DNA of 46,014 nt from NCBI GenBank assembly GCA_038062935.1, contig JBBTWG010000025.1, positions 1 to 46,014 of the forward strand. Reading direction: 5' to 3'. Positions 17,384 through 44,180 of the stretch are shown piece by piece. Made by a program: the position numbers and the translations under genes. The stretch comes from Patescibacteria group bacterium (GTDB lineage: Bacteria; Patescibacteriota; Gracilibacteria; UBA1369; UBA12463). The stretch's first letter is position 1. Each line of letters starts with the position of its first letter. Under the pieces are notes generated by a model. It did not search any database and was not told where the DNA came from. It worked only from the letters and a program-made list of their open reading frames with translations.

Positions 17384-17405
17384 GGCGAGAGTATAGCAGA
17401 AAACC

Positions 17406-24068: not shown

Positions 24069-25622
24069 CTAATGCCGGAAAAGTCTCACCCCCGTCGTCA
24101 CCATCGCAAGCCCGAGCTCGTCCGCGCGCGCGACGACTTCATCATCACGGATGCTGCCGCCCGGTTGAATAATCGCCACCGCGCCAGCTTTCGCACACGC
24201 CTCCACGCCGTCCGCAAAAGGGAAAAACGCATCACTCGCCATGACGCTGCCCGGCACATTCGCGCCGCCTTTGTGTGCACCGATGAAAACCGCATCCACA
24301 CGCGACATCTGACCAGCGCCGATACCCGTCACCACCTCCGCACCATCATCCAAAACTTTCGCAAACACGATCGCATTTGAATGTACGTGCTTCACGATTT
24401 TATTCGCAAAGAGCATCGCCTGAATTTCGCGATCTGTTGGTGATTTTTTCGTCACAACTTTCAAATCCGCGACCGTCACATCGGAACCACCCTGACTCTG
24501 GATGAGAATGCCACCTTCGACTTTTTTGATGTCACGACTATCTTCATTCGGCCGTAGTTCGCCAGTTTTCAAAAGTCGCAAATTCTTGTTTTTCATGAGT
24601 ATCTCGAGCGCGTCCGGCGCAAAATCCGGCGCAATAATAATTTCCAGAAACCATTTCTTCTCCGCAATAAAATTCGCAACACTGATGCTACATCCGCGAT
24701 TCAACGCAAGGACTCCACCAAAAGCTGACATCGAGTCGACCTCGTATGCGTATCGCAGTGCTTCTTCCAGCGTCTCTGCACTCGCAACCCCACATGGATT
24801 ATTGTGCTTAATCACTGCAGCTGTCGGTCGAGAAAATTCTTTCACAAGCTCCAGCGCACTATTGCCATCCACAATATTATTGAAAGAAAGTTGCTTTCCA
24901 TGCAGCACCGCAGCGTTCGTAATATTCGCATCTTTGTTGAAAGGATTTTTGAAGAAAGCCGCTTTCTGATGAGGATTTTCGCCATAACGCATCGACGACA
25001 CTTTTTCATAATGCAGATTCATCAGTTCCGGTTCTTCGAGTTGTTGTCGGAGATAGCGCTCGATTTCTTCATCATACATGCGGGTGCGGGTGAACACCTT
25101 GCGCGCAAGCAACTTGCGAGTCACCAAAGTCGTATCCCCATGTTCTCGAATTTCTTCCAAAACTTTTCCATAATCCGCAGGATCCGTGAGCACTGTCACA
25201 AACCGAAAATTCTTCGCACTACTGCGAAGCATCGACGGCCCACCGATATCGATCTGCTCGATCACATCCAATTCACTCACACCTTTTTTCGCTGCCGTCG
25301 CCTCGAAAGGATAGAGATTGATCACCACGAGGTCGATCTCCGGAATTCCGTGTTGCGCCAAAGTCTCCATATGCGCAGCATTATCACGCAAAGCGAGAAG
25401 CCCACCATGAATTTTTGGGTGCAAAGTTTTCACACGCCCATCCAAAATCTCCGGAAATCCAGTCATATCGCTCACCAAAGTCACCGGAATATCATTTTCC
25501 TGAAGGAGTTTTGCTGTACCGCCAGTAGAAAGAATCTCGATTTTCAGCTTTGCGAGTGCCTGAGCGAAAGGAAGAATTCCGCTCTTGTCCGAAACGCTGA
25601 TAAGGGCACGAGACAAACCCAT
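24069..25622 (-). CDS. purH: Bifunctional AICAR formyltransferase / IMP cyclohydrolase (PurH)
   Basis: Full-length PurH signatures are present: ALISVSDKSGILPFAQALAKLKIEILSTGGTAKLL...GRVKTLHPKIHGGLL...VVINLYPF...IKHNNPCGVA...AIIQPGGSIRD...RLFRH. Confidence 0.95.
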   Translation of the reverse strand: MGLSRALISVSDKSGILPFAQALAKLKIEILSTGGTAKLLQENDIPVTLVSDMTGFPEILDGRVKTLHPKIHGGLLALRDNAAHMETLAQHGIPEIDLVVINLYPFEATAAKKGVSELDVIEQIDIGGPSMLRSSAKNFRFVTVLTDPADYGKVLEEIREHGDTTLVTRKLLARKVFTRTRMYDEEIERYLRQQLEEPELMNLHYEKVSSMRYGENPHQKAAFFKNPFNKDANITNAAVLHGKQLSFNNIVDGNSALELVKEFSRPTAAVIKHNNPCGVASAETLEEALRYAYEVDSMSAFGGVLALNRGCSISVANFIAEKKWFLEIIIAPDFAPDALEILMKNKNLRLLKTGELRPNEDSRDIKKVEGGILIQSQGGSDVTVADLKVVTKKSPTDREIQAMLFANKIVKHVHSNAIVFAKVLDDGAEVVTGIGAGQMSRVDAVFIGAHKGGANVPGSVMASDAFFPFADGVEACAKAGAVAIIQPGGSIRDDEVVARADELGLAMVTTGVRLFRH

Positions 25623-29541: not shown

Positions 29542-30843
29542 ATGAGCCTCACAAAAACAATCAGCAGAAAAGAAGATCCACTGAGTGCTAACAATAAAAT
29601 CACGCTCTCTCGATATTTCCCAAAAGGAACACAGTATTTTTATGCCTATCCAGCAGAGGAAGCATCTCATTTTTATAATGCTGTTCCGCCAGAAGTGGAG
29701 GAGGTTGTGGCTGCACGGCCACTTTCATGTTGTGGGCCAAATGTGAAGGTCATCTGTTTTGCAGAGTCACTCAAGCAAAAATCATGGGAAATGCTCAACG
29801 ATCTCAACGCAATCAATATCGAGAGGAAGAACATTCTCACACTTCCAGAGAAAATCACGACAGCTATCAAAGGAAATGAAAGAAATGACCTCATCTGTGA
29901 ATCGCTCTCAAAAATGGTGAAAAAAGGGAAATTACTGATGGCACAGCCATTCCTCGATGCAAGATTGAAGTCTTTTTACCAGATACCTCCTCAGCGCACG
30001 ATCTGGCTCAACGACAAGAGAAATCTTTCTTCTTTCATTCCTCAACAATTTTTGCCTCGCCGGTATTTCGAATTTTTGGATGGCATGTGCTTCCACGAGA
30101 CCGAAGAAAAAGTTCCACTGCCATGCGTCGTAAAAGTATCTTCTTCTTCGTCAGGTGATGGTGTGAGAATCTGTAGAACCAAGAAAGATCTCGAAGAAGC
30201 AAAACATGAATTCAGAAAAATAGAAGGAATGATTATCGTAGATGAATACATCAACATCAAAAAAAATCTCGGCGTTCAGTTCGGAATTCCATATGACTTG
30301 AAAAAGCCGATTGAAATCATCGGTATCCACGAGCAGCTCACGAGCAAAGATGGTGCTTTCTTGGGAGGAATTCTCGATCTCGAAGAAGAGAAATTCTACA
30401 GGAAAAAACTCAGCACACTTTTAATTAAAAAAATTCTCCCAGAAGTCCAAAGAAAAGGATGGTATGGAATCGGAGGGTTCGATGTTCTGGTCGACAAAAA
30501 AGGAAAATTCCATTTCGTCGATGCCAATTTCCGAATGACCGGAATGACGACATACGATTTTCTCGTCAGAAATAAAATTATTAAAAAATCACTTATCAGT
30601 TTTAGTGGTCTTTTCCATGGAAACGAAAGCGAATTCAGGGAAAAAATTATGAAGATTGCAACACCGAAGAACAAAGACCAGATGCTCTTCATCACGGCGC
30701 TCACAGAAAAAAACAATATGTATCGATTCAATGCAGCAATGATTTTCGATAACAAGCGTCAGATGAAAGTAAACGCCAAAAAACTGATAGAAAGCGGCGT
30801 CATTTCAGAGGTAATGTCTCAAGTCTGCGAAGGCAAGATATAA
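29542..30843 (+). CDS. ATP-grasp family ligase, substrate unknown
   Basis: ATP-grasp motifs are present: PCVVKVSSSSSGDGVRICRTKKDLEEA...IIVDEYI...WYGIGGFDVLVDKKGKFHFVDANFRMTG. The N-terminal approximately 170 aa are unassigned. Confidence 0.7.
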   Translation: MSLTKTISRKEDPLSANNKITLSRYFPKGTQYFYAYPAEEASHFYNAVPPEVEEVVAARPLSCCGPNVKVICFAESLKQKSWEMLNDLNAINIERKNILTLPEKITTAIKGNERNDLICESLSKMVKKGKLLMAQPFLDARLKSFYQIPPQRTIWLNDKRNLSSFIPQQFLPRRYFEFLDGMCFHETEEKVPLPCVVKVSSSSSGDGVRICRTKKDLEEAKHEFRKIEGMIIVDEYINIKKNLGVQFGIPYDLKKPIEIIGIHEQLTSKDGAFLGGILDLEEEKFYRKKLSTLLIKKILPEVQRKGWYGIGGFDVLVDKKGKFHFVDANFRMTGMTTYDFLVRNKIIKKSLISFSGLFHGNESEFREKIMKIATPKNKDQMLFITALTEKNNMYRFNAAMIFDNKRQMKVNAKKLIESGVISEVMSQVCEGKI

Positions 30844-32168
30844 ACTTTCGGAACCGGATTGATAAATTCCTGAGAGAGGACGTATTTGTAAGCTCCCTGA
30901 TATGGAACGACAATCACATCGTTTTCTTCGATCTGCGTGGCATATGAATAATATCCCCAAATATCATGTGGAGTGCACAGAGGTCCATACACCGTACAAT
31001 CAATCTCCTTGAGCGACGGATGAGTGAGATTGATGAGTGGATAGTAGAAGTGCTCACCATATTCCCAGCCAACAGCATTCACGCCACCATCAGCGATCAC
31101 GCACTGAGGATTTTTCACGTCCACCACGCGCGTCACGATGTGCATAGAATTATTCGAAATGATGCGCCCGGGCTCACTATAGTAATCACACTGGAGCAAA
31201 GGATCGAGATATTCTTTCACGGCACCAGCAATCGTCTGGGCAAATTGTTCCAGGGAAACAGAATTGGTCACAAAGTACTTGTCATCAAACGGCGTTTTGA
31301 CCCCAAAATAGTTATCAGCAGTTTGCAGGAGCGCTCCGGTCGGGAGACTCCCCGGATAATGAGATGTCCATGGATAATATCCCTCCGTCTGATTCGGGAA
31401 AAAGCCACCACCGAAATCAATAAAATCGATTTTTTTCAGCATCTCCGGACTGAAATTCGCCCGGAGGTACTCAGAAAGTTCTTTGAGAATCTGGACATAT
31501 TTCGAAGGATCACGATTCCAACTGATATGAAATTGAATGCCGCACAAATCTAAAAACGAATATTGCCGAGCTTCTTCCCAGAAATATTTCAAATCACTCA
31601 GTGGAATGCCGAATTTCGACCATGCACCATGAAACGAAGAGAAAAAGCGAACACCAGCACGGATGCGAATTTTCTTTTTCTCGCTCAATTTCCCCAGCTT
31701 CCGGAGTTCAGAAAAGCTGTCAATATTCACCGTCACGGTGTCGGCGTGATCCAAAGCAGTTGAGAGGCTTTTGAGTGTCTTTCCGGGTCCAGAAAAGAGA
31801 ATATTTTTGGCGCCCGCTTCCAGCGCGAGATTGAGCTCGCGTTCACTCGAAACGTCCAGTCCGAAACCATGCTGCAAAACTGTCTGGAGAATAAACGGAT
31901 GATGATCAGACTTCATCGCATAAAAAGGCTTGCAAGAAGGGAAAAATGTAAAAAAAGCGTTCTGGAATCGAAGGATGCTATTTTTGAGTTCATCCTGATC
32001 CAGCAAATAGAAAGGCGTCTCATATTTCTCAGCAAACTGCAAAATCCGGTCACCTTTCTGCTGAACATCCTGAACAACCTGGACCAAGCTTTGTGAACTC
32101 CTTTCAGGGGATGTTTCCAAAAGTTTGAGCAGTCGCTTTTTACTTTCTTCCAGGTTTGAGATAGACAT
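30819..32168 (-). CDS. PLP-dependent decarboxylase, Orn/DAP/Arg decarboxylase (alanine-racemase fold) family
   Basis: PFYLLDQDEL, FYAMKSDHH (PLP lysine), GLDVSSERELNLALEAGAKNILFSGPGK, FGGGFF, EPGRIISNN and GPLCTPHD are the family's catalytic motifs. The substrate cannot be assigned from the sequence. Confidence 0.8.
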   Translation of the reverse strand: MSISNLEESKKRLLKLLETSPERSSQSLVQVVQDVQQKGDRILQFAEKYETPFYLLDQDELKNSILRFQNAFFTFFPSCKPFYAMKSDHHPFILQTVLQHGFGLDVSSERELNLALEAGAKNILFSGPGKTLKSLSTALDHADTVTVNIDSFSELRKLGKLSEKKKIRIRAGVRFFSSFHGAWSKFGIPLSDLKYFWEEARQYSFLDLCGIQFHISWNRDPSKYVQILKELSEYLRANFSPEMLKKIDFIDFGGGFFPNQTEGYYPWTSHYPGSLPTGALLQTADNYFGVKTPFDDKYFVTNSVSLEQFAQTIAGAVKEYLDPLLQCDYYSEPGRIISNNSMHIVTRVVDVKNPQCVIADGGVNAVGWEYGEHFYYPLINLTHPSLKEIDCTVYGPLCTPHDIWGYYSYATQIEENDVIVVPYQGAYKYVLSQEFINPVPKVYILPSQT

Positions 32169-32251
32169 ATGATCCTGTGAAATATATGAGCAAAAAGGGC
32201 ATTTGTACAGATCTAAAAGTTAGAAAATATTTGACAAATATGTAAAAACAC

Positions 32252-33427
32252 CTACCACTCAACATGATGCCAGGGCTTCAGGATGACATCCTGAGTAATG
32301 GTGCTCGCACGTTCCACAGGCGCCAGAAGGCACTTTTCAAGTGGCCTTTGGAGGAGCGCTTCGGTCTTCAAAAGACCTGCAGCAAGCAAAGGATTGAGTG
32401 TTCTAGAAGTTTTGATTTCACGGGCATGAATTTTCCCGCCTGTTTCGATAAAAAGGTCGACCTCCAGTCCATCATTCGTCCGAAAATAAGAAAAAGCGGG
32501 ATGTTCTCCAGAGAAACTCGCCCATTTGAGATGTTCCAGAACAACGGCTGTTTCGAAAAGAGGTCCCAGGAAAAGCCCCTGATTCAAAACTGCCGGATCG
32601 TGAATGCCCATGAGATACGATGCGAGAGCCGTATCAGCAAAATAAATTTTGGGGGCTTTGACGAGACGTTTCGAAAGATTGATATGAAAAGGCTCGAGCA
32701 GATACACCTGATAGCTCGCCTGAAGAATCGAAAGCCAGCGTCGCACGGTGGGAACGCTGATACCTGTATCACGAGCGAGATCGCTCATGTTCAGAATTTG
32801 TCCAGTGCGAATAGCGACAAGTCTCAAAAAACGTTCGAAGAGTGTCAAATCGGTGACGTTCAGAATCTGTCGAATATCGCGTTCCAGATAGAGCCGGATA
32901 TAGCTCGCACACCAGATATTGCGATCCAGTTCAGGACGACTGCGAAGTTCCGGATATCCTCCACGAAGGATCCAATCAGCAATATCATCAGTTTGAGCAT
33001 GCGATAGTTTTTTCTTGCCATCCACTTCACGAATAGAGCAGGGATAGAGAGTGAGAACTGCGGCGCGCCCGGCAAGAGACTGGGAAACATGCTGCATCAT
33101 AAGGAAATTTTGTGATCCCGTAAGAATATATTGCCCATATCTCGTACGATGAGCATCCACAATACCCTGAATATAACTCGGCAACTGGGGGGCGTATTGG
33201 ATTTCATCAAAAATAACTGGAGCAGGAAAGTTTTCCAGAAAAGTTCTCGGATCTTCGAGCGCCTGACGTCGAATATCGGGATCCTCGAGAGATACGTATT
33301 GGTGCGTTTTTTCCAGAAGCATTTTGCACAAGGTGCTTTTCCCCGTCTGACGGGCACCAGTCAGGATGACAACAGGGAAAGTTTTGACCGATTTCAGAAA
33401 GAGTTTTTCCGTAAAACGCTGGTACAT
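32252..33427 (-). CDS. AAA-type ATPase with a DUF4143-like C-terminal domain (COG1373-like ATP-binding protein)
   Basis: It has a Walker A motif (VVILTGARQTGKSTL), then FDEIQYAP and YILTGSQNF. The C-terminal region is ...YFRTNDGLEVDLFIE.... I placed the start at ATG 33427 (MYQRF...). Confidence 0.75.
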   Translation of the reverse strand: MYQRFTEKLFLKSVKTFPVVILTGARQTGKSTLCKMLLEKTHQYVSLEDPDIRRQALEDPRTFLENFPAPVIFDEIQYAPQLPSYIQGIVDAHRTRYGQYILTGSQNFLMMQHVSQSLAGRAAVLTLYPCSIREVDGKKKLSHAQTDDIADWILRGGYPELRSRPELDRNIWCASYIRLYLERDIRQILNVTDLTLFERFLRLVAIRTGQILNMSDLARDTGISVPTVRRWLSILQASYQVYLLEPFHINLSKRLVKAPKIYFADTALASYLMGIHDPAVLNQGLFLGPLFETAVVLEHLKWASFSGEHPAFSYFRTNDGLEVDLFIETGGKIHAREIKTSRTLNPLLAAGLLKTEALLQRPLEKCLLAPVERASTITQDVILKPWHHVEW

Positions 33428-33578
33428 GACGACATCATAACACATGCAAATTAAACATTCAATATTAAATTTGCACACAAAAAGGTATATTTCAGCTTGA
33501 AATAAGAAATTTCATTGGAGAAATTCAAAGATAAAAAATAAATGCTTATGGAAAGAAAGAGACATCCAAACCGGCAGC

Positions 33579-33607
33579 TTGCGCCCAAAGCTATTTTCTG
33601 GTATAAT
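33579..33607 (+). promoter_or_regulatory. Sigma70-like promoter candidate with extended -10 (TTGCGC-17 nt-TGgTATAAT) in front of the orphan operon
   Basis: TTGCGC lies at 33579-33584, TG at 33599-33600 and TATAAT at 33602-33607, 35 nt upstream of the ATG at 33643. Confidence 0.5.
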
Positions 33608-33642
33608 AAAAAGAATTCTTCGAAAAATAAAAACATACAAAA

Positions 33643-34188
33643 ATGCTCAAAAAACTCCGCACGAAAATTCGACTCAGAAGAGCTCTTGTAGCTGAGCAGC
33701 GTGCGAAACAAGTCACGCATTTCGATCATGGAATCCTCGATTGGCAGACAACGCAATACAATGCGTACGAAAAAGGCGTCCTTTGGTATGTCATTTTCAC
33801 GGCTGTCATAAGCCTTTTTATCGTCTATGCGTTCTACAGCAAAGATTATTTCTTCGCAGCAGCCATGATCGCATTCGGAGTTGCATACGCTATTTTGCAG
33901 CGAGAAAAGCCAAAAAATGTGAAAGTTATCCTCTCGAAATACGGGATCAAAGTCGGAAATGATGTATATCCATACAGTGAGGTAATCGCATTTTGGCTGA
34001 TATACAAGCCACCATACGTGAAGACGCTCAATTTCAGAATCAAAAATCGCTGGGCACAGGATCTCGTGATCAACATCCACAAAGAAGATCCAGCAGAAAT
34101 TCGCGAGATGCTTGGTTCGATAATTCCGGAATGGAAAGGCAAGCAAGAAGCCTTTGCAGAAAGCCTCGTTCGCCTCCTGCGCCTCTGA
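33643..34188 (+). CDS. Hypothetical two-TM membrane protein with a beta-rich C-terminal domain (topology like bacterial PH/DUF304 proteins)
   Basis: The TM helices are VLWYVIFTAVISLFIVYAFY and YFFAAAMIAFGVAYAIL, followed by an approximately 90-aa soluble domain. The 264-aa antisense ORF is Cys/Phe-rich and was rejected. Confidence 0.55.
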   Translation: MLKKLRTKIRLRRALVAEQRAKQVTHFDHGILDWQTTQYNAYEKGVLWYVIFTAVISLFIVYAFYSKDYFFAAAMIAFGVAYAILQREKPKNVKVILSKYGIKVGNDVYPYSEVIAFWLIYKPPYVKTLNFRIKNRWAQDLVINIHKEDPAEIREMLGSIIPEWKGKQEAFAESLVRLLRL

Positions 34189-34224
34189 AGCACGAACGCC
34201 GTTCGTATACAAAAATAAAAAAAT

Positions 34225-35724
34225 ATGAGCAATCAAATTCCACAAATAGACGATTCAAAAAAAACCTTCGAAGATCGACAGATCACGTCAAAAGAGGTGG
34301 AGTACAACGAAAGAGTAGAACGCCTCGTCAGAAAATATCTCGAAGATGATATTGGAAAAGGTGAAAATGCCGATACTCAAATAGCGCAACTGATTCACGA
34401 ATTGAACGAAAATGGAATTCACAAAGTATTCGAAAAAGTGCGAGAAAAGCTCAAAGGCGCTTCGGCCAACGATCTTTCGAGTGTCGTCGACGACATCAAT
34501 CAGAAAACAAAGTATCTCGATGAGTACATGGACTACATCACAGCGGTGATTCTCACATACGCAGCGCAAGATTCAGAAGGAAAGAAAGACAAACTGAACA
34601 TTCGTGAACTCTATCGCTTCAACGTTGCCGCAAAAGGCAGTTTGAATGCGCATCAACGTGGATACGGAGGCATGGTGCAAAAGATGGCACAGGGAATCAA
34701 TCTGACGCAGAAAGAAGAAAAGAAGCTCGTACAAGGTTTGAAATCGCTCTCAGGAAATCCAGGAAATCGCAGCGGTCCACTCGAACAGATTCAGAATTCT
34801 GGCGCATGGGCGGTCGTGGGAATGATGAACGAACAGCAGCGATTCAATCTCGCGGCAACTTTTATCAAAGAAAAACCCGCAGAAGCAAAGTCATTTTTGG
34901 AAGGTATGACCACATCAGGAATCTTGACGATCGCAGATGCAAAAGCATTGTGGCCAGATGGGAGTTTCCCAGAAAAAGACCTTCAGGAAAAACAGCAAAA
35001 AGTGGCCAACATGCAGAGAGAATTAATGCAGCGAGTCGCAACTCAGCACAGCGATCAAAATCAGATTTTACGATTTACAGATCCGAAGAACCTCGCAGGA
35101 ATCGCGCTTCAGGTTTGGGGGGTCACCGAAATGATTTTGAATGGCGCAACCATGGCAAAAGCAGGAGATTGGAAAGGATTCGCCAGCAATCCATGGTTTC
35201 TCGGAGGCGCCGCCGCCGCAATGGCAGGCCACGGAATGACAACAAAAGGCGACATGTTCGCTTTCATCAAAGAGCCATCCGCAAATGAAAAAGAAGCAAT
35301 GAGATCACAGCAAAATCAAGAGAAGATCGGAAAAACATTGACTCGATATCCAACACAGTTTCAACAGATAGCCTGGGACGTCGTGGTGGCAGATGCGAAA
35401 CTCATGCGCGAGGATGCAATCAAGAGAAGCAAAGACAAGCACGCAATTCCATCAGTTGAATTAACGCTCAAAGATATCATCATCGGCATGAAAGAAAAAA
35501 ATGCAAAAAAACCAACCAAGCCCTATGGAGATCGAATTGCTGCACTCGAAATGATCCAGAATGCGAGCGACACCGGGACAAAGTTGGCGCTCAACGAAGC
35601 CATAACACTCATAGTCAAAACGCCAGAAATTGCGACAGCAGCAAACATAGACCAAATCTACAAACAGGCCATCAGAAAACAGGGAGTCGCCCAGAAAAAA
35701 CCGATCATAAAACCGGTCGTTTAA
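34225..35724 (+). CDS. Hypothetical protein (499 aa, mostly helical and charged, with one Gly/Ala-rich hydrophobic patch)
   Basis: A long ORF 36 nt after the previous gene. The hydrophobic segment is NPWFLGGAAAAMAGHGM. I found no catalytic motifs. Confidence 0.6.
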   Translation: MSNQIPQIDDSKKTFEDRQITSKEVEYNERVERLVRKYLEDDIGKGENADTQIAQLIHELNENGIHKVFEKVREKLKGASANDLSSVVDDINQKTKYLDEYMDYITAVILTYAAQDSEGKKDKLNIRELYRFNVAAKGSLNAHQRGYGGMVQKMAQGINLTQKEEKKLVQGLKSLSGNPGNRSGPLEQIQNSGAWAVVGMMNEQQRFNLAATFIKEKPAEAKSFLEGMTTSGILTIADAKALWPDGSFPEKDLQEKQQKVANMQRELMQRVATQHSDQNQILRFTDPKNLAGIALQVWGVTEMILNGATMAKAGDWKGFASNPWFLGGAAAAMAGHGMTTKGDMFAFIKEPSANEKEAMRSQQNQEKIGKTLTRYPTQFQQIAWDVVVADAKLMREDAIKRSKDKHAIPSVELTLKDIIIGMKEKNAKKPTKPYGDRIAALEMIQNASDTGTKLALNEAITLIVKTPEIATAANIDQIYKQAIRKQGVAQKKPIIKPVV

Positions 35725-35736
35725 AAAAAACAAAAA

Positions 35737-36624
35737 ATGGAAAATAATATCAAAAAATTCGAACACAAACTCCAGGAAAACGGCATGGATATCCGTGAAA
35801 AATTCCTGAGAAATCCAGCAGGTATGTATGTTGGCGAAGTTGCCAACACCGACAATGAACTTTTCCGTGCAGAGGTTCGCGAGACGAGCACGGGTGTGGT
35901 GTACGCATTCCAGCCCATTCGCGAAGATAAAGTCGAGATAGGTCCGAGCATTTCAATACCAGAAATAGCACTCAACCAAGCCATCCCACTCTTCGCACAA
36001 AAAATAGTAGAAGGTGATGTAGCGCGCAAAATCGCAGTACAAGAAATGGCAAAAAAAGCACTCACGCAAAGTCTCGCGGGAAGCGCAGTCGCTCGAGTAG
36101 TCGGCCACGAACTCAACGAACGTCTCATGGATCAGGCGATTCAGGAAAACGAGCAAGATCAAAGTGAAAAAGAGACAAGAAAAAAAGATTTTTTCAGAAA
36201 AAAAGCGAACAAAGAATACAGAATCAATAAAAAAATAAGCGAAGTTTTCGACGGAAAAATGACATTTACAGAAGAACTTCCCACCGGAAAACTCCCCGAT
36301 CTCCAGAAAATGAATCCAGAAGCAATATTGCGACAAGAAAAGAAAGGTTCAGGAAGAGCTACTCAATCACCAGGAGAAGCTCTCAAAACAAAAGAAACAT
36401 CGGGATTTCAGGATGCTCGAAAGAGGTATGACGAACAACAGAGAGAGCAGGCAAAGAACACGCAGCAACAGGAAGCACAAAAAGCAGAACAGAGGAAGCA
36501 GCAGCTCGCCCAACAAAGACAAAGATCAGGAAAAAGTTCCAGTACCTCATGGCTGACAGGAGGCGCCATCGGCGCCGGAGTCACGATCGGCGGAACAGGA
36601 TTATTCACTCTTCTCTTCTCCTAA
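35737..36624 (+). CDS. Hypothetical tail-anchored membrane protein (Gln/Glu/Lys-rich linker, C-terminal TM)
   Basis: It starts 12 nt after the previous gene. The C-terminal TM is WLTGGAIGAGVTIGGTGLFTLLFS, preceded by QQREQAKNTQQQEAQKAEQRKQQLAQQRQR. Confidence 0.6.
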   Translation: MENNIKKFEHKLQENGMDIREKFLRNPAGMYVGEVANTDNELFRAEVRETSTGVVYAFQPIREDKVEIGPSISIPEIALNQAIPLFAQKIVEGDVARKIAVQEMAKKALTQSLAGSAVARVVGHELNERLMDQAIQENEQDQSEKETRKKDFFRKKANKEYRINKKISEVFDGKMTFTEELPTGKLPDLQKMNPEAILRQEKKGSGRATQSPGEALKTKETSGFQDARKRYDEQQREQAKNTQQQEAQKAEQRKQQLAQQRQRSGKSSSTSWLTGGAIGAGVTIGGTGLFTLLFS

Positions 36625-36628
36625 AAAT

Positions 36629-38986
36629 ATGAACACCAAGCACACAAAAATGAGAAACCTCCGAAAAAGTGCCATCATGATCACGATCACGCTCGCGTGT
36701 GTGCTCATATTTTCCGGAGTCGCGTCAGCAGACACGACCACGACATTGCCACAAGAATTCGTCTCGAATTTTGCCAAGCTTTTGAGTTTCATTCTCCAGG
36801 CGCTCTCGAAGATCTTTTTGCCCATCATCATGCTCACGGGAGCGTTGATGAAAAGCGATTTTATCTTCAGCGGAACGATGAACGAGACACTCCTCACGAT
36901 CTGGACGCAGATCAGGAATCTCGTGAACGTCATCTTCGCCGTCATGCTCATCGTCGTCGCACTCTACAACGTTCTCGGACTGGGAGAATCCGCAGAAACA
37001 GGTGCCTATCTCCAATTCAAAAAAGCCCTCCCGAAAGTCGTCCTCGGACTCATCCTCGTCAATTTCTCGTACCTCGGAGTGAGAGTCTTGATCGACGTCG
37101 TGAATGTCGGAACCACGATCGCATTCTCGATCCCGAACTCTACGGGACTGCCAGCAAATGTTCAGAAAGAGCTCAAGGCAGACCAATCGCTCAACGCATT
37201 TTGTAGAATAGCAGCCAGTGACAAGAAACTCTACGGCGCCATCCAAAAAGCTCCTGCTCCACCAAAAAAAGGAGAAGAACCAAAGCCAAAACCAGTAGTC
37301 GCTCCCTCAAAAGAAATTTGTGATGAGAACCAGAAATTAACAAAAGAAACACTCGAAATGCTCACAAAGTGGAACATCGACGGTGCCGTCCCGATCATGG
37401 CGATCAAATTTATGAATCTCCAGAAGCTCGATAGTGTCAGCGCAGAAATTCAAAAAAGCGGCGGCAAGATTGAGAAGCTTACCTTAAATCTCATCGTCTC
37501 GATCGTGCTCTATCTCCTCTATGGAGTCAGCTTCTTGGCACTTTTTGTGATGCTCCTCGGGAGAGCCGTGGCTCTCTGGATGGTCGTCGTATTTTCACCC
37601 GTGATCGCTATCCAAATGGCGTTCCCGCAACTCATAAGCTCTGTAGGCGGCGGCAATTATGGCCAGCAAATTATCAAAACACTCATCGCCCCAATCATCA
37701 TCGGATTTGTGATGTCGATCGGATTCATGATTATCGGAACGATGCAGAATGTGGACTATAGTAACACTTCTCTCAACATCCTCTCCATCAGCACCACCGC
37801 AGCCGATCTCCAGACCTCGAACATCGAAACATTCCAGCAATTCCTCATCGCCATCGGCGCCGTCGCTTTTGTATTCCTAGGCGTGCAGAGCGCCACCAAA
37901 GACGCCATCGGCGGAGAAATCGCCGGAAGTATCCTCAGCGGTGCACAGCAGGTCGGAACCTGGGCCGCAACAGCGCCATTCAAATACGCTCCTATTTTCC
38001 CAGTGCAGAGTCCAGACGGCGAACATTTCAACGCCAGCCCTGCAGCGATGTTGAAAGTAGTGGGCGCTATTCCGGATGCCATGAATACTGCCGCGAACGA
38101 ACAAGCAAAAAAAATGTTTCCCACCGCTTTTGGTAATTTTGAAGCACAGCTCAAAGAAATCAAAGATGGTGCAAGTGCAGAAAAATTTGCAGACATAGTG
38201 CGAGGAACCAGCAAGCCAGAACTTTTGAAATCAAAAGAATTGGTATCAGCAGCAAAGAGAATGATGGATAAAGGAGGCATCACGGATAAAAATTTGAAAG
38301 AACAGATCGAGGCAATAGCAAACTCAGGTGGAGATGAAGAGAAAGTCAGTAAAGCCATCGAAAGAATTCGAAATTTGGCAAAAACAGGTCCAGTAGCTGC
38401 CGCTCTCGATACCAAAAAAACAGAAGTCCCACAACTCGTCAGTCAACGTCTCTTGGAAGGAGAAGAGCAGGGGAAATTAGAGAGACTCCAGAAAGCCTTA
38501 GCAGATGGGAAGATCAAAACAGAAGAAGATCTAAAAAATCATGAAGGATATGCAGCCTCCGAAAAAGCCAAGAGGATCAGTGAAGCAGTAGCAGCAACAA
38601 CAGGAGCAGCAACCGGCGCTGTCGGAGCCGCAAAAGCAGATCCAGCAAAAGTGACCGACGCACTCAACAAAGCAAAAGGAGAGTTGGAAACCGCAAAAGT
38701 GCCAAAAGCAAAACAGAAAGAAATTCTCGTCAAAATCGTCAATGATGCCACGAAACCGGAAGAAAGAACGGCAATAGCAGATGCTCTCGAGAAAGGCCAA
38801 GATGCAGAAATAAAAGCGGTCGGACAAGAAATAAGAAAGACTATTCCTCCGACACCACCAGCAGAACCTACTCCTGTGGCAGTTTCGAAGCCAGTAGCGC
38901 CACCAGTCGCTCCGGCAGCCGCCCCGCCAAAAGCTGAACCCCCTGCGGCAGAACCACCAAAACCAGGCCCAGCCGTCACCCCATAA
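36629..38986 (+). CDS. Hypothetical polytopic membrane protein: signal peptide, at least 6-7 TM helices, long Lys/Glu/Ala-rich and Pro/Ala-rich C-terminal tail (architecture reminiscent of VirB6/TrbL)
   Basis: It starts 4 nt after the previous gene. The signal peptide is AIMITITLACVLIFSGVASA|D. TM segments include IFLPIIMLTGALM, VIFAVMLIVVALYNVLGL, VVLGLILVNFSYLGVRVLIDVV, LIVSIVLYLLYGVSFLALFVMLLG, LWMVVVFSPVIAIQMAF, LIAPIIIGFVMSIGFMIIG and FLIAIGAVAFVFLGV. The tail ends PPTPPAEPTPVAVSKPVAPPVAPAAAPPKAEPPAAEPPKPGPAVTP. Confidence 0.7.
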   Translation: MNTKHTKMRNLRKSAIMITITLACVLIFSGVASADTTTTLPQEFVSNFAKLLSFILQALSKIFLPIIMLTGALMKSDFIFSGTMNETLLTIWTQIRNLVNVIFAVMLIVVALYNVLGLGESAETGAYLQFKKALPKVVLGLILVNFSYLGVRVLIDVVNVGTTIAFSIPNSTGLPANVQKELKADQSLNAFCRIAASDKKLYGAIQKAPAPPKKGEEPKPKPVVAPSKEICDENQKLTKETLEMLTKWNIDGAVPIMAIKFMNLQKLDSVSAEIQKSGGKIEKLTLNLIVSIVLYLLYGVSFLALFVMLLGRAVALWMVVVFSPVIAIQMAFPQLISSVGGGNYGQQIIKTLIAPIIIGFVMSIGFMIIGTMQNVDYSNTSLNILSISTTAADLQTSNIETFQQFLIAIGAVAFVFLGVQSATKDAIGGEIAGSILSGAQQVGTWAATAPFKYAPIFPVQSPDGEHFNASPAAMLKVVGAIPDAMNTAANEQAKKMFPTAFGNFEAQLKEIKDGASAEKFADIVRGTSKPELLKSKELVSAAKRMMDKGGITDKNLKEQIEAIANSGGDEEKVSKAIERIRNLAKTGPVAAALDTKKTEVPQLVSQRLLEGEEQGKLERLQKALADGKIKTEEDLKNHEGYAASEKAKRISEAVAATTGAATGAVGAAKADPAKVTDALNKAKGELETAKVPKAKQKEILVKIVNDATKPEERTAIADALEKGQDAEIKAVGQEIRKTIPPTPPAEPTPVAVSKPVAPPVAPAAAPPKAEPPAAEPPKPGPAVTP

Positions 38987-39046
38987 CCTCACCCATCTCG
39001 TCTCAGAAAAAACTTGACAAAAAACAAAAAGTATTGAATTATACCC

Positions 39047-42000
39047 ATGAAAGAAACTCAAAAACACACACAAATCAGAAAAGCAGCAGCGCAGATCGTA
39101 ACCCCTTTCTCGCTCATGCACAACACACAGCATCATCTCATGTTCTGTGATCTCGGAGCCTCCACAGCGGGGTCGCTCACCAGTCTCTACGGAAGGTCGG
39201 TTTTTTTCGCAGATAGCGGAAAAGCACAGACATCCGGAAATGATGATGTCACCAAAAAACTGTCATCCGAGCAGACAACGCATGATGATAAAAAGACAGG
39301 AACAAAGCTCGAGCAGCAGCTCGAAAAAAATAAAAAACGTTTCCATCCCACGACCTACAGCAAAGCACATGATGCCCTCAAGAGAGGAACATTCTACGAA
39401 GAAACACTCGTCGAACGTCTCATAGGAGGCACCATCACGAGCGAGCGTTTCGAAGAAATGGTGGAAAGACTCGGCAAAGAATTGAACGATCCCGAGAAAA
39501 ATCTCACAGAAATGGAGCTCACCGGCAAGATCAAATCCGGAACATATGATCAGGCAATTCAGTCGCTCCAGGAAGATGACGAAGCGTTCATCGAGCACAA
39601 AATGGCCGCGCGAGAACTTTCGAAAGGATTCATGAAAGAAAAAGAATTCCTCCTCTTGCTCAAGAAAAAACCACTCCCAAAAAAAGAGATAACGAGATTA
39701 AGTGCTCTCGAAACATACGGGAACGAAGCCATCGAAGTCGGCCGCGAAAGCACGCATCAACTCCTCGATGCGTACTCCACCAGCTACGAAGAATATTGCG
39801 ACGCAAAAGTCGACACACCAGAAATGGCTGAAGAGTACCAAAAAAACATGGAAAAGATGCGAGATGCAGCAGCAAGAAAGGATACTGTGGGAAGGCAGCT
39901 CGATGCTGTTTTGCACGAGGTGGCAGAAGGCGATCAGATACTCGAGAAAAAACTCTCCGATGCTCTTTTTAGTCTTCTCAAAGACGAAGAAAAAGTGACT
40001 ACAGCGCACATTCAAACAGCATTCCAAAAAGTCCGGGAAGGCAGCAAAAAGCAATTTCAAATTGATCCTCAGCAGGTTCAGCAGATTGAGGCACATTTTG
40101 AAAAAATCCAGAAAATCGGAGACGAATTTGCTGCAAAAAGCAAAGCAATGACCGATCATCTCGCACTCATTCAGAAAAAATCACTCGAAAAAGCAAGCGT
40201 CGACAAAGTCATCGCAGACGGTCAGAGAGCCACCGGCATCACACTCAAGCCCGGCACAAAGTTGAAATTCAAACAGAAGTATTACGACGAGGAAACTGGA
40301 AAGACGATCGAGAAAGACACTGAAACAGAAATCATCGGTATCTACGTCGACACATCCGCCAAAGAAAAAATCGAATGGAACGATCGCGAATTTCAGTCGG
40401 ATGAAATTCCACTCGTCGTCATGACCGGCCAAGGAGTGCCACTCACCATCACACGCCTCAAAAAATGGGTCGACGAATCCGGCGCACAGGAACAGATAGA
40501 AACCCAGCAGGAGCTCGAAAAAGAACTCGGCTTCAGCGTGAAGCCAGGGACACAATTGCAATTCAACACAGTAGTTCGAGAAACAGGAAAAATGCGAGCA
40601 GAAGAAGTTTCGAACACCGTCACAATTATGCCAGCACTCCAAGTACCAGGCGCAGAACCTCGCATCCAGCTCAACAAAAAAGTCACTCTCAGAACTCCAG
40701 AATCCGCCCCTCACGCTCGCCTCACGCAGCGCGTCGAGAAACAGAGCCTCACTTACGCCGAGTTTCTCATTTGGGCTAGAAATTATGAAGTAAGTCCAGA
40801 GCACACCAGCGTCGCAGAGCTCGCAAAAGCCGCAGAAATCGAATCCGGTTTGCACGAGAATCAAGTCCTGGTCTCCGGCGACGCCGCACGCTCGATGATG
40901 TGGCTCGTGAAAAAGATCGAACTTCCACAGCCATCAGGAAAAACAGGAAAAATCACACTCGGCAATGCACAGGGTGACATGACGCTGTCATTTGGAGAAT
41001 TCCTCCGCATGGCTCAGAAGCAAGGTCTCAGAAATTACGACGTGAAAGAAGAGGTCGATCAGCGCATGGCATCGCTCCAGGGCAGCGATGATTATTTCCC
41101 AGAATATGAACGCGAAACAAGAAACACAGCCAACAAAGTGGAAAAATTTACCGCACAAGCTTCGCGTGACGGAGCAGAAAAACAGCAGGAAAGTCAGGCA
41201 CTTCGGAAGGCAATTCAAAACGAACAAAGAATGGCCGCAGACAAAGGTGGGCACGGACCAACACTCCCTGTAGCCACCGCAGCACTCGAAACCGGTGCCG
41301 CCAACGACAACAAAGAACATCACGGCGAACACAAAGAACATGCCGGAGGAGCACACGCTGAAGGCGACCACCACCATGATAAAAAAGAAGGCGACGATCA
41401 CCATGACAAAAAACATGGCGACGATCACGGTAAAGGCGACGACCACGGCGGTGACGACCATGGAAAAGAAAAAAAACATGACGATCACGCCGGAGGGGAT
41501 GAGACCATGAAAGGTCTCAAAGACGTCGAAGTTCCAAAAGACGGAGCCATGAGAGCATTTTGGAGAAAGACAACATTCCTCCGAGGAGCGGATATCTGGG
41601 AGCTCGGAAAAGCCTGTTGGGAATACTACAAACGTTGGTACGAACGCGAATCCAAAGGTCGTTACGCCAATTACGGGAAAGATCTCCCGTACCTCATGAC
41701 GGAGATGTTGAAAGTCAAAGAAGACACCGAGCATCACGAAGTAGGACAGTTCAAAAGCGCCATGGTTAACATGGGTGTCGTCGAAATCCAACACATCATG
41801 CATCAGACCACCAATAAAGATCAGCTCAAAGCCTGTATCGAAGCACTCGTCGATAAAGGTCAGATGGACTGGAACGACATGCATTTTTGGCAGGCGCTCA
41901 ATCTCCACCTTCCCAACGACAAAAAAATTCGCTACGACAGCAATCACCTCGATCCCCACAAAGGTGTCTACGTCGATCCCACCACCGGCAAGAAATTGTC

Positions 42001-43270
42001 CGGTATTGATATGGTCAAGAAAGGTATCGACTCCATGTGGGGCGATAATCAATTCAACAACTGGTGGAGCAGCAACGATGGCAAATACACCTCCCAGATG
42101 AACACGTTCGATGCAAAAGGAATGCAATTCGAAAATGATCCCAAAAACAATGGTGGAGTGCGCGCACATCTTCAAATGATGTTGCGGGTTCACATGGAGG
42201 GTCAAGGTGGATGGACCGATCCACACGAGTATGAAGGCATTATCCGATTCATCATCAAGGCAGGAAAAGCGAGCGTCGAAGACAAGTTTTATTTCATCGT
42301 CATGGGAGTAGCAACAGGACTTCTCACGCTCGATCGTATCGGTGCTATCAATGGCGAATATCTCAATCAAATCCCATGGCTCGATTGGCTCACCGACAAA
42401 GGAACTCGAAAACCTTTTCAGGAAGGCGAAGGTCCATACAAAATTTCAGAGCTCAAAGAGCTGGCTGGATATCTCTTCCATGATCCGAATATCAAAGAGC
42501 CAGGACAGAAGTATCTCCCTCACCTTCGCACCCGAAAGTTACTATGGGAAACAGTTTTGCAGGACGACAAAACGCTCGTCAGAACGAACAAAGGCATTCG
42601 TCAGGCACAAAAAATCGATCACGAAGATACGCCATTTATCGTTCCACTGGTCTCAGAAGCAAACGCCGAAATTCTCTGTAAGCTCAGAAGTAGCACAGAA
42701 GGTATGTTCACGACAGAAGGTTATCTGAACGCCTACACCGGTTATGGTCAATTTATGCAGGTCACAGCCAAAACAGGAGCAGCAGATAAGCTGGCAACCT
42801 GCATCAAAGCGTATGTCCGTTATGACGGCATTCTCGACAATCGCTACAGACCCAACGAGATAGCGTATCAACGTCTGAGTATTTCTGACTACAGAAGGCC
42901 AGCACTCACGGATACCAAAGGGATTCATGTGATTCAACACAAACAGCAGCTCAGCGAAATGATTATCAATATCGGTCGTGCCTATGGCTATAACTGGGAA
43001 AAAGTCTTTCAGAAGAACGAAAAAGATAAGGATAAACAGAAAGAAATTCATGACGCCATCAATCTCTTCAATACGGAATTTCAGGAGGCAATCGATAATC
43101 AGGGCTCACAAAAAATGCTCGATATCGTGAAAAACACCGACCTCTACGGAACCGGCGAAGACTTCCTCACGCCACAAGAAACTCAGGCAAGAGCCAGAGC
43201 CGCAGAAGCACGAGTCGCCGCCGCATCAGAAGCCGCCGCCATGGCCGGAACCGGCACAGACGGGATGTAG
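39047..43270 (+). CDS. Giant hypothetical protein (1407 aa): coiled-coil-like N-terminal third, three approximately 95-aa tandem modules, a His/Asp-rich tract, and a roughly 600-aa Trp/Tyr-rich C-terminal domain
   Basis: A single uninterrupted ORF, last gene of the co-directional block. I saw no TM helix, Walker A motif or HExxH motif. The exact start is uncertain. The 460-aa antisense ORF at 40988-42370 was rejected as a shadow. Confidence 0.7.
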   Translation: MKETQKHTQIRKAAAQIVTPFSLMHNTQHHLMFCDLGASTAGSLTSLYGRSVFFADSGKAQTSGNDDVTKKLSSEQTTHDDKKTGTKLEQQLEKNKKRFHPTTYSKAHDALKRGTFYEETLVERLIGGTITSERFEEMVERLGKELNDPEKNLTEMELTGKIKSGTYDQAIQSLQEDDEAFIEHKMAARELSKGFMKEKEFLLLLKKKPLPKKEITRLSALETYGNEAIEVGRESTHQLLDAYSTSYEEYCDAKVDTPEMAEEYQKNMEKMRDAAARKDTVGRQLDAVLHEVAEGDQILEKKLSDALFSLLKDEEKVTTAHIQTAFQKVREGSKKQFQIDPQQVQQIEAHFEKIQKIGDEFAAKSKAMTDHLALIQKKSLEKASVDKVIADGQRATGITLKPGTKLKFKQKYYDEETGKTIEKDTETEIIGIYVDTSAKEKIEWNDREFQSDEIPLVVMTGQGVPLTITRLKKWVDESGAQEQIETQQELEKELGFSVKPGTQLQFNTVVRETGKMRAEEVSNTVTIMPALQVPGAEPRIQLNKKVTLRTPESAPHARLTQRVEKQSLTYAEFLIWARNYEVSPEHTSVAELAKAAEIESGLHENQVLVSGDAARSMMWLVKKIELPQPSGKTGKITLGNAQGDMTLSFGEFLRMAQKQGLRNYDVKEEVDQRMASLQGSDDYFPEYERETRNTANKVEKFTAQASRDGAEKQQESQALRKAIQNEQRMAADKGGHGPTLPVATAALETGAANDNKEHHGEHKEHAGGAHAEGDHHHDKKEGDDHHDKKHGDDHGKGDDHGGDDHGKEKKHDDHAGGDETMKGLKDVEVPKDGAMRAFWRKTTFLRGADIWELGKACWEYYKRWYERESKGRYANYGKDLPYLMTEMLKVKEDTEHHEVGQFKSAMVNMGVVEIQHIMHQTTNKDQLKACIEALVDKGQMDWNDMHFWQALNLHLPNDKKIRYDSNHLDPHKGVYVDPTTGKKLSGIDMVKKGIDSMWGDNQFNNWWSSNDGKYTSQMNTFDAKGMQFENDPKNNGGVRAHLQMMLRVHMEGQGGWTDPHEYEGIIRFIIKAGKASVEDKFYFIVMGVATGLLTLDRIGAINGEYLNQIPWLDWLTDKGTRKPFQEGEGPYKISELKELAGYLFHDPNIKEPGQKYLPHLRTRKLLWETVLQDDKTLVRTNKGIRQAQKIDHEDTPFIVPLVSEANAEILCKLRSSTEGMFTTEGYLNAYTGYGQFMQVTAKTGAADKLATCIKAYVRYDGILDNRYRPNEIAYQRLSISDYRRPALTDTKGIHVIQHKQQLSEMIINIGRAYGYNWEKVFQKNEKDKDKQKEIHDAINLFNTEFQEAIDNQGSQKMLDIVKNTDLYGTGEDFLTPQETQARARAAEARVAAASEAAAMAGTGTDGM
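41312..41503 (+). repeat. His/Asp/Gly/Lys low-complexity tract inside the 1407-aa ORF
   Basis: The translation is KEHHGEHKEHAGGAHAEGDHHHDKKEGDDHHDKKHGDDHGKGDDHGGDDHGKEKKHDDHAGGDE. The DNA shows reiterated ggcgacga(t/c)ca(c/t) units. Confidence 0.85.
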
Positions 43271-43271
43271 A

Positions 43272-44180
43272 TCACCCCTCCAACGCAATCTTCCCCGCTG
43301 AGATCTCCGAAATTTCTCGTGTAATCGTCGCCTGACGGACTTGATTCATGTGGAACGTGAGATCGTTGATGAAGTCATTCGCATTATTCGTCGCGCTCTG
43401 CATCGCCACCATGCGTGCAGAGTGCTCTGACGCCGTCGTTTCGAGCGCCGCCTGGAAGACTTGCATCTGCGTCAATTGTGGCAGCAAATTTCCGAGAATT
43501 GCCGCTGGTGAAGGTTCGAAGAGATAATCCGTCGGATCTTCTTTGCCAATATTTTTCAGGTGTTTCAAGCCGAGATCCTCCGCCAGAGTCATCACCGCTT
43601 CTTTCGAAAAAGGCAGCAGCTGATAGGCTGTAGGTTTCTGGACGAGCGGAGAAATGAAGTTCTGATAGAGCATCTCGATCTGGTCATACGTCCCATCCTG
43701 GAACAAATCCATCACATATTTCCCCACCGACAGAGTGTCCGCAAGTTTCGGATGATTCGTGAGAGCACCATACGAAAGCACGATATTTCGGCCACTGCGA
43801 GCCAAGAAATCCTGACCTTTTTTCCCGATCGCAATGTAATCCACCTCGGCACCATCTTTTTTCATCATTTTCTCGAATTCAAAAACTTTCTTGAAAAGAT
43901 TCGTATTAAATCCTCCACACAGCCCGCGATCCGAAGTGAAAACCACTGCCAAAACTTTCTTGATCGGACGTTGGGCGAGGAGTGGATGCGTAAAGCCCTC
44001 CACGCGCTCAGACAATTGAGTGAGCAACATAAGCGCCGTCGACGCATACGTACGCATCGTCGTCGCACTGTGTACAGCCTTTTTCATCTTCGCCGCCGAC
44101 ACGAGTTCCATCGCCCGCGTAATCTGGCGAGTAGAACGGATAGATTTGATTTTGCGACGAATTTCGCGAGAGGAAGCCAT
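43272..44180 (-). CDS. atpG: F0F1 ATP synthase subunit gamma
   Basis: The family pattern is present: MASSREIRRKIKSIRSTRQITRAMELVSAAKMKKA...SDRGLCGGFN...ITREISEISAG. Confidence 0.95.
   Translation of the reverse strand: MASSREIRRKIKSIRSTRQITRAMELVSAAKMKKAVHSATTMRTYASTALMLLTQLSERVEGFTHPLLAQRPIKKVLAVVFTSDRGLCGGFNTNLFKKVFEFEKMMKKDGAEVDYIAIGKKGQDFLARSGRNIVLSYGALTNHPKLADTLSVGKYVMDLFQDGTYDQIEMLYQNFISPLVQKPTAYQLLPFSKEAVMTLAEDLGLKHLKNIGKEDPTDYLFEPSPAAILGNLLPQLTQMQVFQAALETTASEHSARMVAMQSATNNANDFINDLTFHMNQVRQATITREISEISAGKIALEG

Follow-up and report, generated by a model that had tools for sequence, protein, structure and literature searches.

The window analysed here is the complete 46,014-bp contig JBBTWG010000025.1 of a metagenome-assembled genome (MAG) of the Patescibacteria, and the subject of this report is a five-gene operon on its plus strand, the genes of which we call g1 to g5 (Table 1). 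The order and strand of the operon are the same in 17 of 17 loci that have enough DNA to be compared, and searches placed none of its products in a known family. The last and largest of these products, g5, ends in a domain that is better conserved than any other segment of the cluster and whose confident all-alpha model has no structural neighbour in the databases searched. We tentatively read the operon as encoding a vertically inherited, membrane-tethered cytoplasmic complex with an enzyme-like head of new fold. This reading, which we would not go so far as to call probable, has to be weighed against its main rival, a purely structural scaffold.

Gene order, promoter and distribution of the operon

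In the list of open reading frames (ORFs), the five genes follow one another with gaps of only 36, 12, 4 and 60 nucleotides (nt). A first-pass annotation, made from the sequence letters, had described such a series of close-spaced plus-strand ORFs behind a promoter, and ORFs, gaps and promoter were all confirmed where it had put them; the five genes are one transcription-unit-like cluster, that is to say a real operon. The promoter was recognised by direct reading. Since its -35 hexamer agrees with the consensus at only 3 of 6 bases, it was missed by a generic promoter scan, in which the promoter-like and terminator-like sites around the operon were no commoner than in shuffled sequence. In 14 of the 17 homologous loci the 100 nt upstream of g1 contain an extended -10 element (TGnTAnnnT), as against 7% of random 100-nt windows drawn from the same loci (binomial P ~6e-14, a figure that is overstated, as the loci are phylogenetically related), and because this element has been kept across the loci we accept the promoter of g1 despite its weak -35. 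The leaders that precede g1 (33620-33642 in the window and its equivalents elsewhere) are A-rich and in most loci have no Shine-Dalgarno-like sequence; an Rfam scan of the window gave no match. The widest junction in most loci is the one between g4 and g5 (40-124 nt). In the window it contains the sequence TTGACA-17-AATTAT (39014-39042, plus strand), ending 5 nt ahead of the g5 start codon, which is possibly an internal promoter or else the mark of a leaderless start of g5.

The locus survey, in which one genome per species was scanned with an alignment of the 12 closest g4 sequences, yielded 20 loci; the MAGs that they come from all bear the label Peregrinibacteria, Peribacteria, Gracilibacteria, Patescibacteria or just 'bacterium'. 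Seventeen have enough DNA for an analysis of gene order, and it is to these that the following figures refer. The order is always g1-g2-[g3]-g4-g5 on one strand, and both order and strand are preserved down to ~25-30% protein identity. The g1 slot measures 156-218 amino acids (aa), g2 474-600, g4 670-855 and g5 1014-1505, while the g3 slot, empty in 4 of the 17 loci, is otherwise filled by 74-418 aa. The median intergenic gap is 13 nt, and 16 of the 64 junctions overlap or abut. By phmmer, g1, g4 and g5 are detectable in every locus, and in the five-gene form they always occur together. One of the loci is on a 998-kb contig, which carries a single copy. We infer that the operon is a single-copy, vertically inherited part of the core genome in the Peregrinibacteria and Peribacteria. 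Whether relatives would share the five-gene order was a question raised by the first-pass annotation, and these loci answer it in the affirmative; neither a loss of that order nor an assignment of the products to unrelated, already characterised families was found.

The more distant variants of the cluster (46-62% GC) are reduced to a simpler form. In the loci L026 and L028-L030, g1 and g5 persist without g2, g3 and g4, and in L026 and L028 the stop codon of g1 and the start codon of g5 abut or overlap. Locus L026 (9498-16833) has a g1-like gene that overlaps the start of a 1790-aa g5-like gene, after which come genes for three small proteins with a signal peptide and transmembrane (TM) hairpins, two of them with weak records of PF18895 (T4SS_pilin). 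In L028, L029 and L030 a dUTPase gene always follows the g1+g5 pair, and in L030 this pair is near dnaA, thrS, ftsA-ftsZ and a TrbC/T4SS_pilin gene. Since g1 and g5 are all that the distant variants retain, we take these two genes to be the ancient unit; to judge from this distribution, g2, g3 and g4 are probably additions in the five-gene form of the Peregrinibacteria and their relatives.

Single-sequence searches of Pfam, NCBIfam, PHROGs, PADLOC and the PDB sequences raised none of the five proteins above noise, and a regular-expression check found no Walker A, HExxH or LPxTG motif in any of them. Profile searches of the PDB with alignments of g1, g2, g4 and g5 returned only low-complexity or coiled-coil noise. 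A Pfam scan member by member (37 g4, 18 g1 and 40 g5 sequences) gave no recurrent family except a weak DUF6232 in g1. With Foldseek, nothing was found at E<=0.001 for the models of g4 and the g5 C-terminal domain against the PDB, or for the g5 model against BFVD. The literature on Peribacteria, Vampirococcus and the patescibacterial type IV secretion system (T4SS) does not describe the cluster either. The first-pass annotation had been unable to place any of the five products in a known family by eye and had seen no Walker A, HExxH or other catalytic signature in them; the former view is borne out by the sequence, profile and two-model Foldseek searches and the latter, as regards Walker A and HExxH, by the motif check. 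This should perhaps not surprise us unduly: conserved hypothetical operons are common in CPR (candidate phyla radiation) genomes. About half of the genes of the CPR/Patescibacteria have no assigned function and, to our knowledge, the Peregrinibacteria have no cultured member.

The five proteins

At least three of the products are integral membrane proteins, and the topologies initially noted for g1 (two TM segments), g3 (tail anchor), g4 (polytopic, with a signal peptide and a Pro/Ala tail) and g5 (soluble) all held up. The giant g5 begins with a variable, polar N-terminus without a signal peptide and has no strong TM segment. It is made up of a helical, coiled-coil-like part (residues ~100-390), a beta-rich middle (~390-660), an acidic disordered linker and the conserved C-terminal domain, and in two conserved blocks it can be aligned with the Peregrinibacteria orthologue P0002. 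The N-terminal part gave only weak PDB matches of the coiled-coil type (SMC, prefoldin, myosin), and BLAST detected no internal repeats in the middle region. The linker varies in length and composition among orthologues; the nearest subclade is the only one in which it is His-rich, and in others it is rich in Pro.

It is the C-terminal domain that stands out in the conservation profile of the cluster. The AlphaFold2 (AF2) model of this domain, built with 47 sequences, has 29 helices and almost no strand (predicted local distance difference test, pLDDT, 89; predicted template-modelling score, pTM, 0.84). Foldseek found no neighbour for it in the PDB or in BFVD (best E 0.04, TM-scores <=0.2), and by a 'new fold' we mean just this lack of a Foldseek match in the two databases. 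The family to which the domain belongs is a large one. Word-indexed searches with g5, as a sequence or as an alignment, brought up 2 proteins only, and the family emerged with an exhaustive HMMER search of residues 815-1407 against 1.84 billion representatives (clusters at 50% identity), which gave 505 clusters with E<=1e-3, 162 of them with E<=1e-30. Almost all of the best matches are C-terminal in proteins that measure 1000-1800 aa, and the few shorter ones are the domain alone. Among 152 family members examined there was no signal peptide, no TM segment and no fusion of g1, g2 or g4 to g5, and no Pfam family recurred in 40 members. Residue conservation was determined in 131 representatives, whose median identity is 31% (range 23-61%). 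In these, G938, R1179, D1191, D1194 and G1232 are 100% conserved, and N1228, E1063, K1182 (98%), R1097, H1192 (96%) and E886 are 96-99% conserved; the charged or polar residues of the domain that reach at least 90% number 19. The near-invariant motif R1179-x2-K1182-x8-D1191-H1192-x-D1194 brings five of them together. With such a pattern of conservation, the domain is a candidate for a catalytic or binding head.

The partner of g5 in the minimal variants, g1, starts with a basic stretch and continues with a 2-TM hairpin (~residues 46-64 and 69-85); its C-terminal part is a conserved beta-rich domain of ~95-100 aa that ends in a helix. Its alignment (A5, 18 sequences) has a mean column identity of 42%. 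The gene is present in every locus and also in the minimal variants, where it is translationally coupled to g5, and its product is predicted to be a membrane anchor or adaptor for g5. Bacterial membrane proteins with a pleckstrin homology (PH) domain (YdbS/YdbT-type, Pfam bPH) are laid out in the same manner, with an N-terminal 2-TM hairpin, a beta-rich domain of ~90-100 aa and a final helix. None of the 18 g1 members matches a bPH model of Pfam and the PDB profile search of g1 was empty; the likeness is one of layout, and membership of g1 in this group is a possibility. The Pfam matches that g1 does have are weak ones, to DUF6232 in 7 of the 18 members (best E 0.0024), to DUF5673 in 2 and to PF05101 (VirB3) in just 1 (E 0.019).

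The polytopic g4 opens with a signal-peptide-like segment, after which come ~7 TM helices, a helical tail (~430-740) and a disordered Pro/Ala end. All of its 56 homologues come from CPR MAGs labelled Peregrinibacteria, Peribacteria, Gracilibacteria or Patescibacteria, and none has a reproducible Pfam domain; a precomputed PF19590 flag on the homologue P0043 was not reproduced. The AF2 model (37 sequences) has a mean pLDDT of 72 and no Foldseek neighbour in the PDB (best E 0.29). The positive-inside count, with 72 K+R inside as against 2 outside, predicts an N-out, C-in orientation, and by this rule we place the tail in the cytoplasm. In some orthologues the signal peptide is followed by a long extracellular N-terminal extension. 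Invariant polar residues are found in or beside the TM helices (W92, R96, N100, N145, D156, N159, R312, W317), a pattern that would suit a conduit or a substrate site. Moreover, the 134-aa loop at residues 156-289 has two invariant cysteines, C192 and C231 (window 37202-37321), and the closest relatives have four.

A few matches of g4 point towards T4SS components. The g4 of the window, alone among 37 homologues, matches PF18895 (T4SS_pilin; E 0.02, below the gathering score), and TraA is weakly matched by two homologues. These weak T4SS-type matches carry little weight, however, because they are to be expected from hydrophobic composition. A link of g4 to T4SS pilins was rejected, since hhalign gave a probability of 5.6% against a pilin-type set of four sequences (one from L030, with TrbC and T4SS_pilin matches on record, and three from L026, with weak PF18895 matches or none). 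The identification of g4 as VirB6, TrbL or PrgH was rejected too: none of the 37 homologues matches the TrbL/VirB6 models of Pfam even at E<=1, and Foldseek, as given above, returned nothing convincing.

In g2 there is neither a signal peptide nor a strong TM segment. Hydrophobicity in most orthologues peaks in a double segment at residues ~283-350, moderately hydrophobic, conserved and constant in position, which may be a membrane-inserting hairpin. The g2 slot is always filled; sequence similarity can be recognised there in the closer relatives alone, position being the sole guide in the rest, and g2 has no Pfam or PDB matches. Paralogy between g2 and g5 was rejected (hhalign probability 0.1%), as was a Flotillin/NfeD (SPFH) scaffold pair, there being no Band_7/NfeD match of Pfam in g2 or g1 and the PDB profile searches being negative. 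The N-terminal part of g3 is Glu/Lys/Gln-rich and hypervariable between loci; then come a basic stretch and, at the C-terminus, a hydrophobic tail rich in Gly and Ala, and these last two features are shared by most ORFs in the g3 slot. Because the basic residues precede the hydrophobic tail, g3 would be a tail-anchored accessory subunit with its bulk in the cytoplasm. A sortase-anchored surface protein was considered and rejected for the same reason, and also for want of an LPxTG motif and of an N-terminal hydrophobic segment; the LAETG match of g3 in NCBIfam reaches 15 bits against a cut-off of 200.

The atp operon and other neighbours

The genes atpG (43272-44180), atpA and atpH are all on the minus strand, and the five-gene operon is thus convergent on atpG, the stop codons of g5 and atpG being 1 nt apart. 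It is tempting to see here, as the first-pass annotation did, an insertion or rearrangement in the place where atpD and atpC belong, but this is a misreading. The operon is on the other strand, and the closest relatives whose contigs reach further have the order atpD-atpC-atpI-atpB-atpE-atpF-atpH-atpA-atpG (L001 14010-20824; L003 17086-22466), with the five-gene cluster in an identical convergent position at atpG. As atpG ends the atp operon in these close relatives, with atpD-atpC at its 5' end, nothing is missing after atpG. The atp operon of the window is not disrupted, and an insertion of the five genes into it is not supported. The atp gene order itself varies between lineages, from D-C-I-B-E-F-H-A-G in the close relatives to the canonical B-E-F-H-A-G-D-C in a more distant lineage (P0184 locus), where the cluster again adjoins the atp operon. 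Since the same place is occupied in many genomes, we consider the cluster ancestral at the atp site and not a recent insertion. A terminator-like hairpin with a T-run (43135-43157, minus strand) lies just downstream of the atpG stop, within the 3' coding end of g5; the atp transcript may terminate there, inside the convergent gene.

Across the loci, the operon has as its neighbours rpsF-ssb-rpsR, a LysM-M23 gene, thrS and the atp operon; dnaA and ftsA-ftsZ are neighbours in one variant. The GC of the operon (0.42-0.50) is like that of its flanks and of the rest of the window, and a tblastn search with the g5 domain found no match in PLSDB (72,556 plasmids) or INPHARED (50,697 phage records). 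A mobile element or genomic island was rejected on these grounds, the window-like GC, the syntenic position beside housekeeping genes and the lack of a plasmid or phage match. An anti-phage defence system was likewise rejected, for want of a PADLOC match to any of the five proteins.

Between the LysM-M23 gene and the operon there is a 4.3-kb stretch that is absent in the relatives L001 and L003, and because these close relatives lack it we regard it as a local insertion. The AAA_14+DUF4143 ATPase gene in this stretch (32252-33478), an unrelated neighbour, matches the PADLOC candidate defence family PDC-S01 (E 2.6e-103). The window also encodes giant S-layer homology (SLH)-domain proteins, PurP-type purine genes, rpsF-ssb and the LysM-M23 peptidase, a gene content in keeping with the Peregrinibacteria. 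The SLH-domain proteins come from two adjacent giant ORFs (2384-9523 and 9559-13026, plus strand; 2379 and 1155 aa) in which a C-terminal SLH domain is the sole Pfam match; like proteins described from Peribacteria, they probably belong to the S-layer or the cell surface. A bacterial purH has two genes of PurP type (DUF1246+DUF1297, the archaeal-type synthetase of 5-formamidoimidazole-4-carboxamide ribonucleotide, FAICAR) beside it (16259-17434, 19911-20969 and 24069-25622, all on the minus strand); from this co-occurrence, both routes for one purine step are apparently encoded.

Table 1. Coordinates of the operon, of segments of its products and of related features (window positions unless another locus or residues are given)
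Feature	Locus or protein	Coordinates	Strand	Details
Promoter candidate	window	33579-33607	+	TTGCGC (33579-33584), 17-nt spacer, extended -10 TGgTATAAT (33599-33607); direct reading
g1	window	33643-34188	+	181 aa
g2	window	34225-35724	+	499 aa
g3	window	35737-36624	+	295 aa
g4	window	36629-38986	+	785 aa
g5	window	39047-43270	+	1407 aa; NCBI name AAB551_02075
g4 TM helices	g4	residues 48-72, 93-115, 133-155, 290-312, 314-336, 348-371, 402-423		~7 predicted helices
g5 His/Asp/Gly-rich disordered linker	window	41279-41521	+	residues 745-825; translation
g5 C-terminal all-alpha domain	window	41549-43171	+	residues ~835-1375; AF2 model
g5 near-invariant motif	window	42581-42628	+	R1179-x2-K1182-x8-D1191-H1192-x-D1194; translation and alignment
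g1+g5-only loci	L028; L029; L030	139-5751; 8414-13680; 9463-15075		53-62% GC
Genes of the upstream stretch	window	29542-33478		ATP-grasp (+), ornithine/diaminopimelate/arginine pyridoxal-phosphate decarboxylase (-), AAA_14+DUF4143 ATPase (-)

Possible functions and comparison with known systems

According to the reading that we tentatively prefer, g1, with its 2-TM hairpin and its small, PH-like-looking cytoplasmic domain, would tether g5 to the inner face of the membrane, where the head of g5 would bind or transform a membrane-proximal substrate. In the Peregrinibacteria three membrane partners (g4, g2 and g3) would have been inserted between g1 and g5, and g4, together with g2 and g3, would couple the activity of g5 to a transmembrane step, for example the handling of an envelope or lipid-linked substrate. 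The analysis establishes the order of the genes, their co-conservation, the topologies as predictions, the orphan status, the confidence of the fold and the conserved residues; the physical complex, g1 as its anchor, the catalysis and the substrate are all things that we infer, and several points weigh against them. Catalysis by g5 is a guess from the conservation pattern, no known catalytic motif or fold having been matched, and the fast evolution of g2 and g3 leaves their roles unconstrained. Furthermore, the invariant Cys pair of g4 sits, unexplained, in a loop predicted to be cytoplasmic. The pair could form either a disulfide, in contradiction to the topology, or a metal site; if a disulfide is formed, then the topology of g4 is wrong and the placement of its tail is wrong too. 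A more ambitious version of the same idea, in which g1 and g5 would be an ancient, hitherto unrecognised membrane-tethered enzyme system, of a fold absent from the PDB and kept in the core genome of a large CPR clade, that was elaborated with g2-g4 into a lineage-defining machine for a transmembrane step at the envelope or in host interaction, working unlike any characterised system, is doubtful.

The main rival would make g5 a structural protein, with g1 and g4 as its anchors, in a scaffold or cytoskeleton-like assembly that organises the division site, a pole or the zone of host attachment; the conserved residues would then be binding interfaces. The weak coiled-coil-type PDB matches of the N-terminal part of g5, the long acidic disordered linkers of the large g5 proteins, the lack of a cofactor or nucleoside triphosphate (NTP) motif and the proximity of g1+g5 to ftsA-ftsZ and dnaA in L030 all speak in its favour. 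Yet invariant Arg, Asp, His and Asn residues in a short motif, at 23-61% identity, are more typical of catalysis or ligand binding, and the coiled-coil N-terminal half of g5 is poorly conserved and is not retained in the distant variants, so that on the whole we think a scaffold rather unlikely. Less likely again is an envelope machine, formed by g1-g4, for the export or display of g5, which would be a giant cargo, effector or adhesin in cell-cell contact, although it would account for the presence of three integral membrane proteins and one giant protein in a single operon and for the long extracellular extension of some g4 orthologues, and although CPR bacteria are host-attached and have many giant surface proteins (PMC8080830, PMC4736985). 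Neither the cluster nor the genes directly beside it in the loci examined include an ATPase or another recognisable energy source, the minimal variants have g5 with g1 alone and without g4, and most of the predicted mass of g1, g3 and g4 is on the cytoplasmic side. Effectors and adhesins, moreover, are usually variable, and fast-evolving when secreted, whereas the C-terminal domain of g5 is the best-conserved element and none of the 152 g5 homologues has a signal peptide; with its invariant polar residues, g5 is better matched by a housekeeping enzyme or a binding module. The first-pass annotation had proposed a membrane machine with a giant cargo or effector; its membrane half stands, in so far as there is one cluster with at least three membrane proteins, but g5 as a cargo, effector or adhesin is not supported, and secretion keeps a small probability. 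We favour the membrane-tethered cytoplasmic complex over a secretion machine with cargo because nearly all of the predicted mass of the proteins is cytoplasmic or in the membrane, because the cluster is inherited vertically, in single copy, among housekeeping genes, and also because g5 is its best-conserved component and no energising NTPase is included.

It might also be asked if the five genes are just unrelated neighbours without a shared function, as the poor conservation of g2 and g3 could suggest. This is scarcely credible in view of an order and strand that have survived in 17 loci to ~25-30% identity, with tiny or overlapping gaps and with g1, g4 and g5 always together. Somewhat less remote, but still very improbable, is a diverged remnant or offshoot of a T4SS, with g1 as the VirB3-like protein, g4 as a VirB6-like one with VirB2-like hairpins and g5 at the position of VirB4. 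The coupling of a small 2-TM protein to one of >1000 aa in the cytoplasm does resemble VirB3-VirB4, there are the weak PF18895, TraA and VirB3 matches and the pilin-like proteins after g5 in L026, and in the class Gracilibacteria VirB6 is reported to be undetectable and VirB3 and TrsD to be unlinked to virB4 (PMC12102498). On the other side, g5 has no Walker A motif and its head is confidently all-alpha and not a RecA-like ATPase, and for g4 the TrbL/VirB6, hhalign and Foldseek results were all negative.

Whichever of these explanations is correct, the signature domain of g5 defines more than 500 clusters at 50% identity that have no Pfam entry, not even as a domain of unknown function. An enzyme would mean a new catalytic fold and would hint at a process of the envelope or membrane that is peculiar to these ultra-small bacteria, and a scaffold would mean a new bacterial membrane cytoskeletal element. 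Either way the g5 family merits a name and a solved structure. Its active-site-like motif can be mutated, and the lead is a concrete and testable one.

Among known systems, the T4SS of Patescibacteria and other monoderms (PMC12102498) is like the operon in being chromosomal and conserved in the CPR and in having a small 2-TM protein upstream of a very large cytoplasmic one. A polytopic membrane protein with a long tail, which is here g4, and the pilin-like hairpin genes beside g5 in L026 add to the likeness. The cluster differs in having no ATPase motifs and in the all-alpha g5 head, without a RecA-like fold, and g1, g4 and g5 have no significant similarity to T4SS components in sequence, profile or fold. 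A VirB4-type ATPase in or next to the cluster was rejected on the same evidence, together with the lack of any ATPase match in Pfam, and neither virB4 nor virD4 was present in any neighbourhood examined. The resemblance to the T4SS is one of layout only.

A comparable mixture of sizes and topologies is found in the type VIIb cluster of the Firmicutes (EsaA, EssA, EssB, EssC), in which EssC is a membrane-anchored FtsK-type triple ATPase. Both have small single- or double-pass proteins, a polytopic protein of ~800-1000 aa and a protein of ~1400 aa. However, g5 has neither a TM segment nor a P-loop, there is no gene for a WXG100 substrate and there are no Pfam matches. With no P-loop in g5 and no TM segment in any of its 152 homologues, membership of the type VIIb (Ess) systems was rejected.

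The cytoskeleton of the Mycoplasma attachment organelle, finally, contains giant cytoplasmic proteins of the HMW1/HMW2 type, with coiled coils and with disordered linkers that are acidic or rich in proline. In sequence these are unrelated to g5, whose conserved, all-alpha polar head is without a counterpart there. What the two have in common, by way of analogy only, is a giant cytoplasmic protein with coiled-coil parts and disordered linkers that is tied to membrane proteins, in a bacterium that is wall-poor or host-attached and has a reduced genome.

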